From: Escherichia virus TH43
Sequence record: MT446414.1
Reading direction: 5' to 3' (one strand)
DNA: 64,000 nt
Both the position numbers and the translations under genes were made by a program. The notes under the pieces were generated by a model. The model was not told where the DNA came from. It saw only the letters and a list, made by a program, of their open reading frames with translations, and did no database searches. Below are positions 585 to 61,092 of this stretch, in pieces. Within the stretch, counting starts at the first letter, position 1. Each line of letters opens with the position of its first letter.

Positions 585-1143
585 TAATGTCTTCGACTTA
601 CCTGAACTAACACGAGTGGGTTCTAGTAACCCATTCTCTACAACTGACTCCTCTATCTCTCGTCTTGAGGGAATGAATAAACTGATCAGCGGTAACAGTC
701 TAGAGCACATCCTATGCGGTGTGCAGGCTAACCTTGAGCTTCTACACATCAAAGCAAAGAATTACCACTGGAACGTCTCTGGAGCTGGTTTCCAAGGTGT
801 TCATGGTATGTTCGATGAATTAGAAGACTATGCTCGTGAAACAGGAGACCGAGTAGCTGAGCGAATGCGTTATCACTGTATCAAAGTGGATGCAACAGCT
901 AGTAGCTATCTTAGTTGTGCTTGGTTCAGAGAAGGTAGTGCTGATCTCGACATGGACGGTATGCTTTCCGACATGTGCATGACTCTGATGTGTATCATTG
1001 AAAAGATGGACGAGTTTGATTCAGACTTGTGCACCTATCCAGTAGACCAGAGTATGCTTCAAGAAATTAATGAAGGTCTTGGCAAGTTCTGTTACTTCGT
1101 CAAGAGCAACATGTCCCACTCTAGTGGTGACGTGTCTTACTAA
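577..1143 (+). CDS. hypothetical protein
   Basis: ORF track; RBS GGAGAG upstream; start overlaps previous stop. Confidence 0.55.
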   Translation: MHNNVFDLPELTRVGSSNPFSTTDSSISRLEGMNKLISGNSLEHILCGVQANLELLHIKAKNYHWNVSGAGFQGVHGMFDELEDYARETGDRVAERMRYHCIKVDATASSYLSCAWFREGSADLDMDGMLSDMCMTLMCIIEKMDEFDSDLCTYPVDQSMLQEINEGLGKFCYFVKSNMSHSSGDVSY

Positions 1144-1164
1144 TCAAACCTCCGCCCTGTCTCT

Positions 1165-1386
1165 TTGTTTAAGAGGTGGGGCGAACTTCTTTATAAGGAT
1201 GTGAATATGTTTTCAGCAATCGTATGGTCTGTGTGGGCAATTCTTGTTGGTGGTATCGTTTATCTGGCTCAGAAACAGATGCTTAAAGAAAATCCGAATG
1301 ATGCTAAACCCATTAAACATGGCAGCATTGCTCTGGTAATTTTCTCTGTTGTCATTCCTTTCCTTCTCCACCTGTTGACTGCATAA
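1165..1386 (+). CDS. small membrane protein (alternative start 1207); paralog of the next ORF
   Basis: hydrophobic helices; RBS AAGGA before ATG 1207. Confidence 0.45.
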   Translation: MFKRWGELLYKDVNMFSAIVWSVWAILVGGIVYLAQKQMLKENPNDAKPIKHGSIALVIFSVVIPFLLHLLTA

Positions 1387-1395
1387 GGGTTTGAT

Positions 1396-1581
1396 ATGAT
1401 TTCACTGATTGTGTGGGCCGTGTGGTCGTTAATAGTTGGTACTGTTATATATAAAGCTCGAAATTTAGCAATTAAAGAAAACCCAGCAGAAGAGGATGTT
1501 AAAGCTATCAAGCTAGGTAGTGTTGTTCTGGTACATTTTGCTATAACACTACCTCTTGTTATTATTCTTTGTATGCTGTAA
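1396..1581 (+). CDS. small membrane protein; paralog of 1165..1386
   Basis: shared VW-x-W..LVGG..Y.A....KENP...K.IK.GS pattern. Confidence 0.45.
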   Translation: MISLIVWAVWSLIVGTVIYKARNLAIKENPAEEDVKAIKLGSVVLVHFAITLPLVIILCML

Positions 1582-1593
1582 GGAACCTGAAGA

Positions 1594-1770
1594 ATGAAAC
1601 TAAAACTCCCTGAAGAGTTGCAAGCACACGCCATTATTGTTAGTGGCTGTGTGATGGGTCTTGGTCAGACAAAGAAGATTGCTCATGACTTAGCAAAAGG
1701 TCAGTATAAATCTTTTATTGTTGTTCCTGCTACCCAGCGTCATATCAACCTGTTTATTAACAAGGAATAG
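1594..1770 (+). CDS. small hypothetical protein (58 aa, below track cutoff)
   Basis: manual translation; RBS AAGGAA 9 nt upstream. Confidence 0.35.
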   Translation: MKLKLPEELQAHAIIVSGCVMGLGQTKKIAHDLAKGQYKSFIVVPATQRHINLFINKE

Positions 1771-2278: not shown

Positions 2279-2929
2279 ATGAATGAACAATTACAAGCAA
2301 CACTAATCGAAGCAATGGGTTCTGATAAATCTGTTGTTAATGCAGCTCGAGTTTCCTTTGGGGTTACTCGTGAAGGAGAGTTAAATGAACGAGATGAACG
2401 CCTTATCAAATTCCTTGCCAGAGAAAAGCATGTCACACCATTCCGTCATCCGACAATTAGCTTCCGATGCAAAGCGCCAATCGCAATTGCGAGACAGTTG
2501 GGCAAGCATCAAGTTGGATTCTCGTGGAACGAAATGTCCCGGCGGTATAAAGATGGAGCAGTTGAACTCTTCATCCCTAAAGAGATTTTTGAAAGACCTT
2601 CGGACCTCCATGCAGGTGCAGGGAATCTCCTCACCACAGGAGCACAAAACTCTGCACTAGTTCTGATTAATCGAGCATATGAAACAGCTCTTGAGTCGTA
2701 CGATGAATTGATTAAGTTCATTGCTCCAGAACAAGCTCGATTCGTATTACCTCAGGGTATGATCACTGAGTGGGTATGGACTGGTTCTCTATATGGTTGG
2801 TCAGAGTTGTGTCGTCAGAGATTGTCAGACCATGCTCAGTACGAAGTACGAGTGTTCGCATCAACAATTGATGAAGAGCTTCGTAAAATATACCCAATCT
2901 CTTGGGATGCATTACGTGAAGCCCACTAA
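2279..2929 (+). CDS. thyX: flavin-dependent thymidylate synthase ThyX-like protein
   Basis: AARVSF...TPFRH...FRCKAPIAIARQ...SWNEMSRRY resembles the ThyX core; canonical RHR appears as KHQ. Confidence 0.6.
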   Translation: MNEQLQATLIEAMGSDKSVVNAARVSFGVTREGELNERDERLIKFLAREKHVTPFRHPTISFRCKAPIAIARQLGKHQVGFSWNEMSRRYKDGAVELFIPKEIFERPSDLHAGAGNLLTTGAQNSALVLINRAYETALESYDELIKFIAPEQARFVLPQGMITEWVWTGSLYGWSELCRQRLSDHAQYEVRVFASTIDEELRKIYPISWDALREAH

Positions 2930-3101
2930 AGCATGTAGCTTCTGTCGAAAGCAGAAGCTTCTTATCAATTTCAAACTGAATGAGGAAACAGGTTTGGGTC
3001 ATGCTTTTTGTCATGATTGCAGGCACTACCTCGAACAGAAGCAATACATAAACTGGTTGCATTACTACAACCCTAACATCTATAATCACAAGGTTATCTA
3101 A
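2906..3101 (+). CDS. small zinc-ribbon protein (CxxC...CxxC); overlaps thyX 3' end; start uncertain
   Basis: ORF track 2793..3101; Cys pairs CSFC and CHDC. Confidence 0.35.
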
Positions 3102-3581
3102 ATGAAAGCTATTTTTGAAGGAAGGGAGTATGATGTTCCTGATTGGGTTAAATACATAGCCCGTGACTATGATAATCTGGTTTGGGCATATGGAGACGTA
3201 AGACCTGTGTTTAATGAAAACACTGGTAGTTGGTCTAACATGTCAAAATTGCCAGGATTTATTCGGGCACTTGGCTCTTCTAGTCGTCCTGTAGGTTTCG
3301 CTGCTGACTCACTTGTTGAGGTTGGTGTTGAAAAGGAAATAGACAAGCCAGAAACGATTTGGGTTTTATCTTCGAGTACCCCAATCAAAGGGAGTCGTGG
3401 GATTTCCTTCTATGTTGAACCGGTCGCTTACTTCAAAAATAAGCCAACCATCAACGCTCTGATGTTAAAGAACATTCCTTATTCACAAGTTGCTACTCTG
3501 TTAGATAATGGTACAGTGCTTGTTGAGAATAATGGGACAAATCAAATCTTTTATGATTTAGAAGAAAGGGTTTTGGAATGA
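3102..3581 (+). CDS. hypothetical protein
   Basis: ORF track. Confidence 0.5.
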   Translation: MKAIFEGREYDVPDWVKYIARDYDNLVWAYGDVRPVFNENTGSWSNMSKLPGFIRALGSSSRPVGFAADSLVEVGVEKEIDKPETIWVLSSSTPIKGSRGISFYVEPVAYFKNKPTINALMLKNIPYSQVATLLDNGTVLVENNGTNQIFYDLEERVLE

Positions 3582-3787
3582 GAATCTACAAATTAAGTCT
3601 ATGCTTTAGTGAATGGACTCACGACACAGAAGTAAAAGCAACTTATTACAAAGACCGTCCTACTCGTGGTCAGCTGATGCTAGATGGTATGGGTAGTGAT
3701 GCTTGTGATGTTGTTCTTCAATACGGAGCTGTTCAGGACTCTTCTCCCGGATATGTTTGGAAACTTGGGATTATTGAGGTTAAGTAA
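3578..3787 (+). CDS. hypothetical protein
   Basis: ORF track; ATGA overlap with previous gene. Confidence 0.45.
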   Translation: MRIYKLSLCFSEWTHDTEVKATYYKDRPTRGQLMLDGMGSDACDVVLQYGAVQDSSPGYVWKLGIIEVK

Positions 3788-10839: not shown

Positions 10840-11452
10840 AGTTTACTTTGCAGGTGATGGTCACCTAGGCCATCGTAACATCTGTAATTTTAGAAAGAAG
10901 TTTAGCAGTATTGAAGAACATGACAAAGCTATCCTAGCAGCTTTTGACCATGTTACTAAACGTGATAAAACTTTCTTTACAGGTGATTGGGTGTTTGAGA
11001 AATACGCACTTGATATTATCGCTGAAGTGAAAGGAGAGAAACATCTTGTCCTAGGAAACCATGACAGATTAGAACTTCTCCCTGATATGATGAAAGTCTT
11101 TAGACACATCAGTGGTGATTATAAGTACAAAGAGTTTTGGGTAACTCATATTCCTATTCACTCTGATGAAATGAGAGGGAAGTATAATATCTATGCTCAT
11201 ACTCATAATTCTACTATTAAAGATTGGAGATACTTTTGTACTTCTATGGAACAAATTGATTATAGAGCTGTATCTCTGCAAGAGATTAGAAAAGAACTAG
11301 AAAGTAGGAAAGAGTGGGTAGCTTCTTTATTACAAAAAGATTATCCAATTACCAGCGAAGTACAAGAGATGTTAAGTAAACAAGCTGAATCTAACTCACC
11401 TTTTCAGAGAACAGTAGAACAAACTAGCTTTAAAGGTCTTTTAGAATGGTAG
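10832..11452 (+). CDS. calcineurin-like metallophosphoesterase
   Basis: GDGHLGH and LVLGNHD metal-binding motifs. Confidence 0.65.
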   Translation: MAEVYFAGDGHLGHRNICNFRKKFSSIEEHDKAILAAFDHVTKRDKTFFTGDWVFEKYALDIIAEVKGEKHLVLGNHDRLELLPDMMKVFRHISGDYKYKEFWVTHIPIHSDEMRGKYNIYAHTHNSTIKDWRYFCTSMEQIDYRAVSLQEIRKELESRKEWVASLLQKDYPITSEVQEMLSKQAESNSPFQRTVEQTSFKGLLEW

Positions 11453-11724
11453 AAGTTCTTGTTTTTAAGTTAAGTTAATTAGTTTTCTTTTGATTTTAAT
11501 AGAGAATCAAAGTCCTAGGAGTCCTCAACCTAAATCAAGGATTTCCTTAATTCTCTATTTTTATCTCGCAGGTGTCTCCTGCCCTTCGGTACTTGCAAGG
11601 GTTACGATGATTGCCCAATATACAAGCCTGCAATAGCTTTACTAGCTATACCATATATACATTACTACTTACTGTTATCTACTACCAAAAAGGTTATAGT
11701 ATAATAGAACCTTATCTGTATAGG

Positions 11725-11745
11725 TGTAATGTATATAGTATACCA
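11725..11745 (+). promoter_or_regulatory. candidate phage-specific promoter motif (GTGTAATGTATATAGTATACC)
   Basis: best copy of the TAATGTATATA motif, 50 nt upstream of the SSB-like gene. Confidence 0.4.
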
Positions 11746-11794
11746 ACCGCTCAAAGAGAGCAACAATCTTAAATTTATATAAGGAAATATTAAT

Positions 11795-12535
11795 ATGTCT
11801 ATGATCCCTGAACTGTCTGTATCCCGTAAATCCAACTACGATGTAATCCCTGATGGCGAGTACGAAGCACGCATTGTTCGTGTAGTAGGTTTAGGTGTTC
11901 ACAATCGTGACCCTTGGATTGACCCTAAGACCAAAGCAGTTACTCCTAAGAACCCAGCTTTCCGTATGGACTTGGCATTTGAACTGATTGGCGTTGACGC
12001 GACTGGTACAGATAATGATGGTAAGGCATTGGACCCACGTCCGGCTTGTCAGTTTAAATCCTTCGATGTAAACCCACGAGCTAAGAACTCTGGTATTCTG
12101 AACCTAATTAAAATGATCGACCCAAGTGTTCAAGCACTGAAAGGTGATTTGGGTTGGTTCAAAGATATGCTGCTTGGTCAGCCTGTCAACATTCTGGTTA
12201 ACTCTTACACCAACAAAGCTGGTGAGAAGAAAAACTCTATCAAGAGCATCACCCCCATCCCAACTAAGTATCGCGATGCTGTAGGTGCTCCTCGTAGTGA
12301 GTTGATCTTCTTCGAACCGTATGCTGAAACTGACGCTAACTTGGCTGCTTATCAAGCTATGTTCCCATTCCAACGTAACCTTCTGACCCAAGCTAACGAT
12401 GCTAAAAACATTCCTCTGGCTGGTCGTGAGGTTACTCGCGCTTCTGACACTGAACAGAAAGACGCGACTCCAAGTATCCCTACTATTAATGAAGAGCCGC
12501 AATCTACCTTTGAAGAAGATGACAGCCCTTTCTAA
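11795..12535 (+). CDS. candidate single-stranded DNA-binding protein with acidic C-terminal tail
   Basis: C-terminus FEEDDSPF; strong RBS; sits after a 340 bp noncoding region. Confidence 0.5.
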   Translation: MSMIPELSVSRKSNYDVIPDGEYEARIVRVVGLGVHNRDPWIDPKTKAVTPKNPAFRMDLAFELIGVDATGTDNDGKALDPRPACQFKSFDVNPRAKNSGILNLIKMIDPSVQALKGDLGWFKDMLLGQPVNILVNSYTNKAGEKKNSIKSITPIPTKYRDAVGAPRSELIFFEPYAETDANLAAYQAMFPFQRNLLTQANDAKNIPLAGREVTRASDTEQKDATPSIPTINEEPQSTFEEDDSPF

Positions 12536-12557
12536 TGAATCTCTCCTTGTAATAGCT

Positions 12558-12583
12558 TAGCCACCTTCGGGTGGCTTTTTTCG
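12558..12583 (+). terminator. rho-independent terminator
   Basis: AGCCACC-TTCG-GGTGGCT perfect hairpin plus TTTTTT. Confidence 0.65.
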
Positions 12584-12594
12584 TTGGAGTTAAA

Positions 12595-12942
12595 ATGGAA
12601 AAGCTTCAAAACAATATCGGCTTCTTAGTCTTTACAGCCCTTGTATTCTTTGGTGGGATGAAGTTTGAGCAATATCGAAATGATAGTAACACTCTTGACC
12701 AAGAGAAGAAACAACAAGAGATTGAGATTGAGAGAGCTAAGGCTGCTGATGAAGTAGCTCAGAAAGTTCTTACCAGTATAACCAACTGGAAGAAGAACAC
12801 AGAAACTGTTTATAAAGAGATGCATTATGAGAAGACTAAGCCAGTTTTTTACAATGTGTGCGCTAGCGATGAGTATGTCAGCTTGTTCAACGAGCGACAA
12901 CAGCAGGCAGCTAATGCCCTTACCAACAAACCTAAAAGCTGA
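12595..12942 (+). CDS. i-spanin-like protein (N-terminal TM helix, periplasmic coiled coil)
   Basis: TM IGFLVFTALVFFGG then a charged coiled-coil region. Confidence 0.45.
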   Translation: MEKLQNNIGFLVFTALVFFGGMKFEQYRNDSNTLDQEKKQQEIEIERAKAADEVAQKVLTSITNWKKNTETVYKEMHYEKTKPVFYNVCASDEYVSLFNERQQQAANALTNKPKS

Positions 12943-13087
12943 GTGTGATGTTGATCTCCCTTTGCTTCAGAGTGCACAGGGAGTGGCATTTGCAACGACA
13001 TTAGAGTGGTATCAGGATAATTATACAACCTGTGCTGCTAATCATAATGGTTTACTGAAAGCTCTCAAGGAGAGAGGAATACAATGA
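12854..13087 (+). CDS. o-spanin-like secreted lipoprotein candidate
   Basis: signal peptide MCALAMSMSAC; Pro-rich with Cys residues; starts inside 12595..12942 in a different frame. Confidence 0.4.
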   Translation: MCALAMSMSACSTSDNSRQLMPLPTNLKAECDVDLPLLQSAQGVAFATTLEWYQDNYTTCAANHNGLLKALKERGIQ

Positions 13088-13308
13088 TCAGAGCGGAACT
13101 TACAATACCAGAAGGTGTTACTCAATTTCATGCAGTATGGGAACATAATAATCAGATTTGGGGACGAACATTCAAATTCTTCATCAACGATGGTGAGTCT
13201 TATTGGGCTTATTATATAGCAGAAGATGATGAATGGGATAGAATTAGGCAACCTAGTGATCACATCCCTTGTCCTGACACAGCAATGTATTTGTTCTGTG
13301 TAGTTTAA
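13084..13308 (+). CDS. hypothetical protein
   Basis: ORF track. Confidence 0.45.
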   Translation: MIRAELTIPEGVTQFHAVWEHNNQIWGRTFKFFINDGESYWAYYIAEDDEWDRIRQPSDHIPCPDTAMYLFCVV

Positions 13309-13332
13309 TATAAAATAAGTTAAGGACGACTT

Positions 13333-13983
13333 ATGAAGAAGAAGACAACACCCACACGCTATCGTATTCATGGCATTCCTATTAAATATTATCCAACCTT
13401 CGATGAATTCTATCGAGAGAACTGGAAAGTTGTGCATCGCTATTTCATGTATGACATTAAAGATTATCACGAAGCAGAGGATGTTGCTCAGGAAGTGTTA
13501 CTGAACGCTTGGCGTTTTGTGTTCGCAAAGCAAGAAGAACTTCTGCTCACTGATGAAAAAGATATTGAACACATGACCTATCGTGTTAAGAATATCATCT
13601 GGTCTATTCGTTCTAATCGTCAGACAGTTGGAGATCGACGTATCTATTCTATTCCAGAGGCTGATATGTTTAGACCTCCTGAGATGAACTCATGGGAAAG
13701 TCCTTTAGAGATTGCGATGGATAAGCATGACTCTACTGGAGACCCATTCTTGGAATCTAGAATCTTTTTCTTCTTCCAAGACTTAAGTGATATTATGGAT
13801 ACCAAGAAAATGGCAAGCATGTTCTCTATGCTCTTCCTTGGAATACCTCATGATCATATTCAGCAGCAGTTAGGAATTTCACACGGAACCTTCTATCGCC
13901 GATATGCAGAGAATCGTGATCTGTATGAAGCTGTAGTAGAGAAGCACTTTGATAAAGAAGATCTTCAAGGGATGATTCAATAA
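13333..13983 (+). CDS. phage-encoded sigma factor (sigma-70 family, ECF-like)
   Basis: region 2-like RYFMYD...[14 protein letters not shown]; region 4 HTH-like [21 protein letters not shown]. Confidence 0.65.
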
Positions 13984-31655: not shown

Positions 31656-32147
31656 TTAGTATTTACCTGTGGTGTATAGGTCTGCTTCTGCAACCCTTCG
31701 GTTGTGAAGTCCCGGACTCTGTTGTTTTACACCTCTGACTGTTATTTTATCCCAACGGAGGAATTCAGAATAAACATCACCCTTCACATCTCCGTTAATA
31801 ACTTTCCTAAGTTTAGAAGTTGATAAAGCCCCACCACCAACGTTGAAATTGAAAGAGGTGAGAGCATCAAACTCGTGGGTTAACAAAGGAACCCTAATAT
31901 TTTTCTGAGTAGCACGAACAGAGTCTTGTGTGTCTCTATCTAGCAGAGCTAGACAATCCTCTATAGAATACGTTAATCCCTGTCTAACTGGATACCCATT
32001 CATATCGCGCGTAGCCCCAACACATATCGTCCAGATACCTGCGGAATCTCGGTAAGCACGAGTTCTCATACCTTCATGCTTCATGATGAATTCCATCCCT
32101 TCTGGGCTTAAGCTCAGTTGTATCGGTGGCAATGCGACATTATCCAT
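31656..32147 (-). CDS. lysozyme (GH24, T4/lambda-type endolysin)
   Basis: EGMRTRAYRDSAGIWTICVGAT catalytic region. Confidence 0.75.
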   Translation of the reverse strand: MDNVALPPIQLSLSPEGMEFIMKHEGMRTRAYRDSAGIWTICVGATRDMNGYPVRQGLTYSIEDCLALLDRDTQDSVRATQKNIRVPLLTHEFDALTSFNFNVGGGALSTSKLRKVINGDVKGDVYSEFLRWDKITVRGVKQQSPGLHNRRVAEADLYTTGKY

Positions 32148-32177: not shown

Positions 32178-32396
32178 TTACTGAAGCATATTTCTCAGAG
32201 CACTAGAATCAGAGTCCGGACAAATAACCACAAGATTATTTTGAATTGTACGCTGCTTACATAATGCACTCAATTTCTCAATTGGTGCAGGTTGTGTTAC
32301 CAGAGGATGCACTGCGTTAACAGGAACAGCCACTGACACAGCAAAACCGGTAGCAACACAAGCTAGCCCATAACTGATTTGTTTCATCATTTTCAT
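32178..32396 (-). CDS. small secreted protein (signal peptide)
   Basis: N-terminal signal-like MKMMKQISYGLACVATGFAVSVAVPVNA. Confidence 0.45.
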   Translation of the reverse strand: MKMMKQISYGLACVATGFAVSVAVPVNAVHPLVTQPAPIEKLSALCKQRTIQNNLVVICPDSDSSALRNMLQ

Positions 32397-59279: not shown

Positions 59280-59534
59280 ATGTCCGGTCATTATTCTGAT
59301 ACGAAAGCTCTACTTGAAACAGCGGCTCAAACTTCATGCCAACAGCAAGTAAAAATGCTGTTGGTTGATATCCGTAATCTTCGTTGGCTTATTAAAGAAG
59401 GTCATCTCGGTAACGCTGCCTATTACAACGTTAAAGATATCCTTCGCCGCCAGCACTTTCTTATCCACGGAAACGTGGTAACTCGCAACTATCAATGGAA
59501 CGGTGAATGGTTACAGCAGCGTATGTCCTCCTGA
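59280..59534 (+). CDS. hypothetical protein
   Basis: ORF track. Confidence 0.45.
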   Translation: MSGHYSDTKALLETAAQTSCQQQVKMLLVDIRNLRWLIKEGHLGNAAYYNVKDILRRQHFLIHGNVVTRNYQWNGEWLQQRMSS

Positions 59535-59761
59535 TTTATGTTATTGGTTGGTGGTTGGCAGCCATTGTAGTTAAATGGTGCTTCAAAACCAATACACTCT
59601 ACAACTTCTTCCATTCCTCATGGAGTGGTAAGCCTGATGAATACTCTATTTGGACGGTGATATTCTTCTGGCCTTTTATGCTGATCTTTATCCTCTTCTT
59701 ACCTTTACTTATGTTGATAGGCTGGGTAATGGATAAGGTGACAGTCTTTATTACTAAGTAA
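59507..59761 (+). CDS. small membrane protein (2-3 TM helices)
   Basis: hydrophobic segments. Confidence 0.45.
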   Translation: MVTAAYVLLIYVIGWWLAAIVVKWCFKTNTLYNFFHSSWSGKPDEYSIWTVIFFWPFMLIFILFLPLLMLIGWVMDKVTVFITK

Positions 59762-60563: not shown

Positions 60564-60830
60564 ATGACAGTTCTTACTATCAATAAGACTCGTGTTGCAG
60601 ATATCCCTCTGACTGTTCAGGGGATTCTTCCCGGCTCTTTCTTTACCCTTAAAGAAGATAAAGAACAAACCCTTTACATGAAGGTAAACAAAAGCTCTAA
60701 CGGTTCTGAATACTCTCGAGCCGTGTCTATGCAGAGTGGGTACGTTCGTAATATGGCACCTAATATGCCAGTTGGTGTTGTATTTGAATCAGCAACTCTG
60801 GATTTAGTGGAGAAGGTTAGTGAAACGTAA
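60564..60830 (+). CDS. small protein, PGDxF paralog family (divergent)
   Basis: GILPGSFFTL motif. Confidence 0.45.
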   Translation: MTVLTINKTRVADIPLTVQGILPGSFFTLKEDKEQTLYMKVNKSSNGSEYSRAVSMQSGYVRNMAPNMPVGVVFESATLDLVEKVSET

Positions 60831-61092
60831 AGATCATCCAAAATATGTGTCACTATTGGATGCAGCCCTTCTCTGCACATATTGGCTCCTCATTGTTGTT
60901 GGTGTCGTGCTAATAATATGTGGTGTCGTACAGTTCTTTATGTATCTGCAAAGCGTGTTAGATATCACATTAGCTAACACTATAATCCTTGCAATTCTCG
61001 GTATTATTGCTTTCTGTGTGATTGTCTTCTTCGTTTGGTTATCTATGAACGACGACTCTACACACCTTCTATTGACAGGAGAAAATCAGTGA
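60820..61092 (+). CDS. small membrane protein (2 TM helices)
   Basis: hydrophobic segments. Confidence 0.45.
   Translation: MKRKDHPKYVSLLDAALLCTYWLLIVVGVVLIICGVVQFFMYLQSVLDITLANTIILAILGIIAFCVIVFFVWLSMNDDSTHLLLTGENQ

Follow-up and report, generated by a model that had tools for sequence, protein, structure and literature searches.

A probable overlapped spanin gene pair in the middle-gene block of Escherichia virus TH43, distant from the endolysin gene

Two overlapping reading frames at 12595..13087 of Escherichia virus TH43 (sequence record MT446414.1; the window analysed here is the whole stretch of 64,000 nucleotides (nt)) raise the question of whether a spanin pair, that is, a protein of the inner membrane (i-spanin) together with a lipoprotein of the outer membrane (o-spanin), can be encoded so far from the endolysin of the same phage. 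A first-pass annotation had proposed that it is. The locus is very probably the two-component spanin of a phiEco32-like coliphage, with the ‘overlapped’ gene architecture; a profile match, curated orthologues and remote homologues located in lysis cassettes all agree with that proposal, including the lack of linkage to the endolysin. The pair is already known, having been catalogued in 2018 for this phage group. Coordinates of the features discussed are collected in Table 1.

The upstream open reading frame (ORF) encodes the predicted i-spanin. A Shine–Dalgarno (SD) sequence, GGAG, is located at 12586..12589, 5 nt from the ATG; a GTG at 12571 was rejected as the start, being inside a hairpin and without an SD sequence. 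The N-terminal transmembrane helix proposed for this 115-residue product is borne out by a hydrophobic core, IGFLVFTALVFFGGM, at residues 8–22 (12616..12660), with a Kyte–Doolittle mean of 2.23 over the 15 residues. The hydropathy scan found no other hydrophobic segment, and a single N-terminal transmembrane domain with the remainder of the protein in the periplasm is predicted. The lone periplasmic cysteine, Cys89 (12859..12861), lies within a conserved N-V-C-A-S-D motif and is invariant in the 14 sequences compared, its context across phages reading P-V-F-x-N-x-C-[ALV]-[ST]-[DP]. Residues 2–115 align with positions 6–127 of the 127 positions of PHROG 1152, ‘Rz-like spanin’ (E 6.8e-36). This full-length profile match places the protein in PHROG 1152 and in the family ‘JH2’ of Kongari et al. 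A PDB sequence search with the i-spanin returned nothing relevant. A periplasmic coiled coil had also been suggested; in lambda the i-spanin domain takes this form. The helical character is reproduced in an AlphaFold2 model (helices 2–79 and 92–110, with the conserved cysteine in a linker at 80–91), albeit at a low predicted local distance difference test score (pLDDT 60), but the coiled coil itself is doubtful, as the tables of Kongari et al. 2018 (PMC6139136) give the phiEco32 orthologue 61 % helix and no coiled coil.

The second frame, in +1 relative to the first, ends at 13087 as originally described, but its start has to be moved. The ATG at 12827, 27 nt 5′ of the ATG at 12854 given before, is the better start. 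From here the precursor reads MRRLSQFFTMCALAMSMSA|C, with a predicted signal peptide at residues 1–19 (12827..12883) made up of an MRR n-region, a LSQFFTMCALAMS core and MSA, followed by C20-S-T-S. The lipobox M-S-A-C, with the putative lipidation site Cys20 at 12884..12886, matches a PROSITE PS51257-like pattern, and an AAAGAG motif is found 7 nt 5′ of the ATG. The upstream start was chosen because it yields a canonical lipoprotein precursor with a lipobox match and AAAGAG ahead of it, because a start at 12854 would lack a charged n-region, and because all relatives conserve the upstream start, which is also the one curated for the orthologues. The ATG at 12854 is in frame and 5′ of the hydrophobic stretch, and would give a 77-residue precursor; it is, however, just 10 residues ahead of the cysteine with no positively charged n-region, no SD-like sequence precedes it, and the codon after this Met specifies Ser or Phe, not Cys, in phiEco32, NJ01 and others, whereas the MR(R/K)L upstream start is kept everywhere. 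Initiation at 12854 is thus very hard to credit.

With the start at 12827, the earlier description of a signal-peptide protein with a cysteine after the hydrophobic region holds, and the charged n-region, hydrophobic core, lipobox cysteine and absence of Asp at +2 together predict an outer-membrane lipoprotein. The mature o-spanin would be 67 residues long with Ser at +2 and two more conserved cysteines, 40 and 69. It contains only 3 prolines, such that ‘Pro-rich’ was an overstatement. Its profile match is to PHROG 2425 (unnamed; E 5.6e-24), with a weak second match to phrog_456, Rz-like spanin (E 0.004). By the rule given in Kongari et al. 2018 (PMC6139136), at least one periplasmic cysteine should be available for intermolecular disulfides; in the TH43 pair, C89 of the i-spanin and C40 and C69 of the o-spanin, all conserved, would be candidates.

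Many public records give a shortened o-spanin of 41–57 residues from an internal Met, without a signal peptide; besides the examples in Table 1, 4E8 g034c is a fragment of this kind. A large protein-database search with the o-spanin returned 5 clusters, mostly 57-residue shortened calls. For this reason the conservation analysis was carried out by tblastn on phage genomes instead. Overlapped o-spanin starts are known to escape gene callers (PMC6139136). An annotation correction follows, namely an o-spanin of 86 residues from 12827 in place of the 41–57 residues without a lipoprotein signal found in many records.

Comparison with other phages supports the assignment at several levels. Between 11500 and 14000 the window shares 97 % identity with Escherichia phage StefiGeyer_Bas88 and phages TH34 and TH42, and 91–95 % with ECBP2, SU7, IME267 and other phiEco32-like podophages (Gordonclarkvirinae); the window is from a phiEco32-like (Gordonclarkvirinae) E. 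coli podophage. In the phiEco32 record the two frames correspond to phi32_39 and phi32_38, respectively, and occupy the same slot between the phi32_40 homologue and the sigma-factor gene. Identity to the proteins of phiEco32, ECBP2, NJ01 and KBNP1711 is 77–98 % for the i-spanin and 80–98 % for the o-spanin. Kongari et al. 2018 (BMC Bioinformatics 19:326, PMC6139136) placed the i-spanins of these four phages in ‘JH2’ with those of Felix O1-like phages, and made a separate four-member family of their o-spanins, to which the TH43 o-spanin belongs by 80–93 % identity over all 86 residues. Their supplementary tables class these pairs as ‘ovl’, with a 116-nt overlap, i-spanins of 115–116 residues and o-spanins of 86 residues, the latter with a 19-residue signal and a 67-residue mature part starting CST. 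The lengths, overlap and signal length of the TH43 pair equal the listed values. RefSeq orthologues are annotated ‘Rz-like spanin’ and the SU7 record carries the annotation ‘O-spanin’. A 2026 paper on the kuravirus ZCEC16 (PMC13417854) likewise describes overlapping i- and o-spanin genes, ORFs 35/36, with a transmembrane domain and a lipobox.

More distant relatives bear on function. Remote homologues of both proteins, at 32–40 % identity, are found in Yersinia phage vB_YenM_324 in the order holin, metallopeptidase, I-spanin, O-spanin; in Salmonella phage Sergei in the order holin, endolysin, holin, i-spanin, o-spanin, with a signal peptidase II site annotated at 19–20; and in Morganella phage Henu15 in the order holin, TIGR02594 protein and then the spanin pair. 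Because remote homologues of both proteins fill the spanin slot of canonical lysis cassettes, the identification as spanins is supported.

The o-spanin gene begins within the i-spanin gene and, measured from the start at 12827, the two share 116 nt in +1 frame, the arrangement of the ‘overlapped’ class. The o-spanin frame was found in 168 phage records by tblastn of the 86-residue product against phage genomes, of which only about 100 are coliphages of this group, the others being phages of Erwinia, Salmonella, Proteus, Pectobacterium, Yersinia etc. at 31–40 % identity; an IMG/VR scan yielded 6 loci only. In the alignment set (n=15; 14 fetched loci, two of which come from one phage, together with the window) the lipobox cysteine is invariant, 15/15, within MSAC, LSAC, MSSC, TSSC, LMAC, ISAC, IAGC or MSGC. 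The compared sequences have Ser or Thr at +2, Met plus two basic residues are kept at the upstream start in all orthologues, and the compared phages retain the two further cysteines as well as the C-terminal motif C-A-x-x-H-N-[GQ]-L. In a comparison of nine close relatives, variable sites are sparser in the overlap (24/116, 0.21) than in the flank coding for the i-spanin only (67/208, 0.32) or the o-spanin only (61/145, 0.42). Substitutions that change both proteins are scarcer than possible, with 16/47 observed versus 206/339 possible. The overlap is under dual constraint and, given the spread of the frame, the invariant cysteine, the fewer variable sites and the fewer double-changing substitutions, the overlapping pair is more than a chance arrangement.

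These data bear directly on the idea that only the i-spanin-like ORF is real, the overlapping frame being open by chance or translated only in its C-terminal 41–57 codons. That idea could draw on the many records that call just such a fragment (phi32_38, Bas88_0028, 4E8 g034c), on the predominance of 57-residue calls in the protein database, and on the weak SD-like motif ahead of 12827. However, the full 86-codon frame, with its Met and two basic residues, hydrophobic core and lipobox cysteine, is kept down to 32 % identity, the substitution patterns constrain both frames, the tendency of gene callers to miss overlapped o-spanin starts is known, and phages with an HNH insertion (below) fuse a new lipobox signal peptide to the same mature sequence. 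A chance or truncated frame has next to no likelihood on this evidence.

An HNH homing-endonuclease gene lies within the former spanin overlap of SU7, E20-1, Bas86, Bas87 and others. The C-terminus of the i-spanin is recoded in these relatives and ends ...ALKLKN or ...VLKSKE, the old o-spanin start reads into a stop codon, and a leftover of the sequence that originally coded for the i-spanin C-terminus persists downstream within the o-spanin gene. A new o-spanin signal peptide is supplied from another frame of the 3′ end of the HNH gene, with the lipobox LMAC or LSAC. By comparison of these sequences, the insertion turns an ‘overlapped’ spanin pair into a ‘separated’ pair, and the retention of a lipobox in the replacement signal shows that the lipoprotein signal was kept by selection. 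At 65 % identity, the two HNH proteins belong to one endonuclease family. No paper describing an HNH insertion in the spanin overlap was found in the literature search.

Returning to the TH43 pair, several points weigh against a spanin assignment. Scans of both proteins against Pfam and NCBIfam gave no meaningful matches, with no Rz or Rz1 family for either protein in Pfam at E up to 0.1, and the literature search turned up no experimental test on any protein of this family. The i-spanin has a short hydrophobic core of 15 residues, with a best 19-residue mean of just 1.41; its model is of low confidence and its orthologue is without a predicted coiled coil. The Met at −3 of the o-spanin lipobox is allowed by PROSITE but is not the commonest residue. 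Similarity to P2 LysB/LysC was undetected, the o-spanin giving no alignment with LysC and the i-spanin matching LysB at E 0.09 over 39 residues. A terminator-like hairpin is located immediately 5′ of the spanin genes. Finally, the genes do not adjoin the holin and endolysin.

This last point concerns the location of spanin genes in a lysis cassette, which is usual but not defining for two-component spanins in the sense of Summer et al. 2007 and Kongari et al. 2018. The GH24 (T4-type) lysozyme had been placed about 19 kb away on the opposite strand, and the distance from the spanin pair to this endolysin and the neighbouring holin-annotated gene is 18.6 kb. A cassette location is not required, because the spanins of T4 are likewise unlinked. 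The pair instead resides in a block of middle-class genes, as the earlier description of an early/middle location had it; this classification is by homology to phiEco32 and SU10, the temporal class of phiEco32 genes 38/39 being second-hand, as far as it is relayed in PMC8948821 and PMC4281155.

Such a location would also suit a middle-expressed envelope complex with a role other than lysis, for instance superinfection exclusion, receptor masking (as by T5 Llp) or envelope remodelling. Such a role could account for why the pair neighbours the sigma-factor and nucleotide-metabolism genes, lies 18.6 kb away from the endolysin and follows a middle-type promoter motif. Nevertheless, in unrelated phages both proteins have homologues at the spanin position of canonical cassettes, the overlapped two-gene architecture and conserved periplasmic cysteines are spanin hallmarks, the T4 spanins are also unlinked from holin and endolysin, and the 46.1 kb examined of the Bas88 record contain no other annotated spanin candidate. 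A non-lysis envelope complex is accordingly highly unlikely, and the spanin assignment is retained.

The impression that no holin was evident beside the endolysin fails at the level of annotation. A 72-residue ORF there matches a PHROG named ‘holin’ and its counterpart is annotated as a holin in Bas88; papers on Privateer and SU10 also place the kuravirus holin and endolysin among the late genes. The suggested dispersal of the lysis genes therefore applies in part: since the holin-annotated gene adjoins the endolysin among late structural genes, only the spanins are displaced. The holin assignment itself is plausible. It is graded no higher because the ORF has a single N-terminal hydrophobic segment (about residues 7–29) followed by V-N-A|V, a possible signal-peptidase I site, because its ZCEC16 homologue is reported to have a signal peptide only, with no transmembrane domain (PMC13417854), and because the endolysin is not of the signal-anchor-release type, the hydropathy scan showing no hydrophobic N-terminal segment in it. 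The small early ORFs at 1165–1581, 59507 and 60820 had been put forward as places to look for a holin. Each has two hydrophobic segments but no functional annotation, PHROG 9296 being the only match and only for the tandem pair. It is conceivable, although unlikely, that kuravirus lysis departs from the textbook cassette altogether, with middle-operon spanins made by terminator read-through, a secreted ‘holin’, and a true holin elsewhere, e.g. among these small early ORFs with two transmembrane domains.

Expression of the spanin genes likely begins at an exact TAATGTATA motif upstream of the phi32_40 homologue, as start of the transcript carrying them. The consensus of the gp36 sigma factor is tAATGTAtA, and gp36-dependent phiEco32 promoters have been mapped upstream of genes 6, 13, 26, 40, 58 and 68 (PMC8948821). 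In the 10 sequences reaching that far, except the distant relative L010, the motif is 865–872 nt 5′ of the i-spanin ATG. The terminator-like hairpin lies between the phi32_40 homologue and the i-spanin gene, with a 7-bp stem of which 5 pairs are GC, and ends 4 nt before the i-spanin SD sequence. It is present in the centroid fold with a z-score of only −1.58 (65-nt context). Hairpin and T run are kept in 11/12 sequences compared, the loop being TTCG or TCCG, and the counterpart in phage 4E8 is annotated as a terminator. The spanin genes are probably transcribed from the gp36-sigma promoter by read-through of this hairpin, at an attenuated level; alternatively, the hairpin may serve as an RNA end or stabilizer. 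Sigma-70-like hexamer matches within the pair (e.g. 12827..12855; 9/12) were dismissed as chance, the region containing 19 where shuffled sequence averaged 12.0 (standard deviation 3.1).

Two further observations concern the sequence upstream. The promoter motif is one of a divergent pair of exact TAATGTATA copies, at 11656..11664 (−) and 11727..11735 (+), whose starts are 71–72 nt apart and which is kept in 9/10 relatives; transcription from the minus-strand copy would run antisense to the middle genes, in an ORF-free stretch. A near-invariant non-coding stretch at 11497..11600 is conserved above the level of the neighbouring genes. It contains a long imperfect hairpin (AATAGAGAAT...ATTCTCTATT), then TTTTTAT and then a second hairpin (GCAGGTGTCTCCTGC), and may terminate the operon upstream, act as an RNA element or belong to an origin. 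Rfam gave no match within 11400..13400.

By analogy with lambda, T4 and P2, the 115-residue i-spanin would be anchored in the inner membrane via its N-terminal helix and extend a largely helical domain into the periplasm. The 86-residue o-spanin would be exported, cut by signal peptidase II before Cys20, lipidated and, with Ser at +2, sorted to the outer membrane. The C-terminal domains of both would then bind across the periplasm through the peptidoglycan mesh, in complexes that may be stabilized by disulfides via the conserved cysteines. Once peptidoglycan is removed by the holin–endolysin step, the complexes would fuse or disrupt the outer membrane and so complete lysis. Spanins expressed with the middle genes could accumulate harmlessly until the late holin–endolysin pair fires; their earlier synthesis would be tolerated, as spanins in the accepted model stay inert for as long as the peptidoglycan is intact.

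Of the neighbouring genes, the phi32_40 homologue has an acidic C-terminal tail, ...FEEDDSPF, similar to the tips found at the C-terminus of single-stranded-DNA-binding proteins. Neither Pfam nor a PDB sequence search gave a relevant match for this 246-residue protein. The slot directly 3′ of the o-spanin gene is variable among relatives, being occupied by a 74-residue ORF in TH43, by a 146-residue Appr-1-p processing (macro-domain) protein in phiEco32 and by other ORFs in E20-1 and EP335.

Table 1. Positions of the predicted spanin genes, their regulatory features and other genes discussed (window coordinates unless a fetched locus is named; aa, amino acids)
Feature	Position	Strand	Details
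Small early ORFs with two hydrophobic segments, tandem paralogues	1165..1386, 1396..1581		PHROG 9296 (function unnamed)
gp36-sigma promoter motif	11727..11735	+	Exact TAATGTATA; counterpart of mapped phiEco32 promoter upstream of gene 40
phi32_40 homologue	11795..12535	+	246 aa; first gene after promoter motif; phrog_6599, E 4e-109
Terminator-like hairpin	12559..12581	+	AGCCACC-TTCG-GGTGGCT, then T run
i-spanin gene (predicted)	12595..12942	+	115 aa; phrog_1152 match
o-spanin gene (predicted)	12827..13087	+	86 aa; +1 frame relative to i-spanin; phrog_2425, PS51257-like lipobox
Dual-coding overlap	12827..12942	+	116 nt; i-spanin C-terminal 38 codons and stop / o-spanin signal and first mature residues
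74-aa ORF	13084..13308		PHROG 30479; start overlaps o-spanin stop (ATGA)
Sigma factor, phi32_36 equivalent	13333..13983		Comparison with phiEco32 record
GH24 (T4-type) endolysin	31656..32147	−	PF00959, E 3.9e-31; phrog_7, E 7.9e-46; among late genes
Holin-annotated ORF	32178..32396	−	72 aa; PHROG 11161 ‘holin’, E 8e-46; 30 nt upstream of endolysin
Small early ORFs with two hydrophobic segments	59507..59761, 60820..61092		No PHROG match
HNH gene inside spanin overlap	L001 (SU7) 2599..3636; L011 (E20-1) 688..1725		Fetched loci
Shortened o-spanin calls	L016 1888..2061 (phi32_38); L002 2963..3088 (Bas88_0028); L004 2917..3090		Records of fetched relatives

Among known systems, the closest are the orthologous pairs of phiEco32 (phi32_39/38), ECBP2, NJ01 and KBNP1711, which share the ‘ovl’ class, the 116-nt overlap, the lengths and the genome position; the proteins differ from those of TH43 by point substitutions only, and the downstream slot holds the macro-domain protein in phiEco32 rather than the 74-residue ORF. 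Like the predicted TH43 pair, lambda Rz/Rz1 couples a type II protein in the inner membrane with an outer-membrane lipoprotein read from the same DNA in the +1 frame. Lambda Rz1 lies wholly within Rz and is short and very proline-rich. The TH43 o-spanin, in contrast, runs 145 nt past the i-spanin gene and its prolines are few, and Rz/Rz1 are the last genes of a lysis cassette, unlike the TH43 pair. P2 LysB/LysC shares the overlapped layout, its o-spanin gene likewise beginning within the i-spanin gene, in a different frame, and continuing beyond its end, yet it is located in a lysis cassette directly after holin Y, endolysin K and lysA.

In position, T4 PseT.3/PseT.2 offers a parallel, with an i-spanin of about 117 residues and an o-spanin of about 83 residues encoded away from the holin and endolysin genes (PMC6139136). 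Like that of TH43, the T4 o-spanin exceeds lambda Rz1 in size and is predicted to have a helix at its C-terminus, and the periplasmic cysteines are conserved (PMC6139136). The T4 genes differ in being ‘separated’ and not overlapped and in belonging to a different Kongari family, and their function is experimentally supported, whereas the TH43 pair is known from sequence. Spanins that are unlinked from holin and endolysin and expressed earlier would make TH43 a further case of the situation known from T4.

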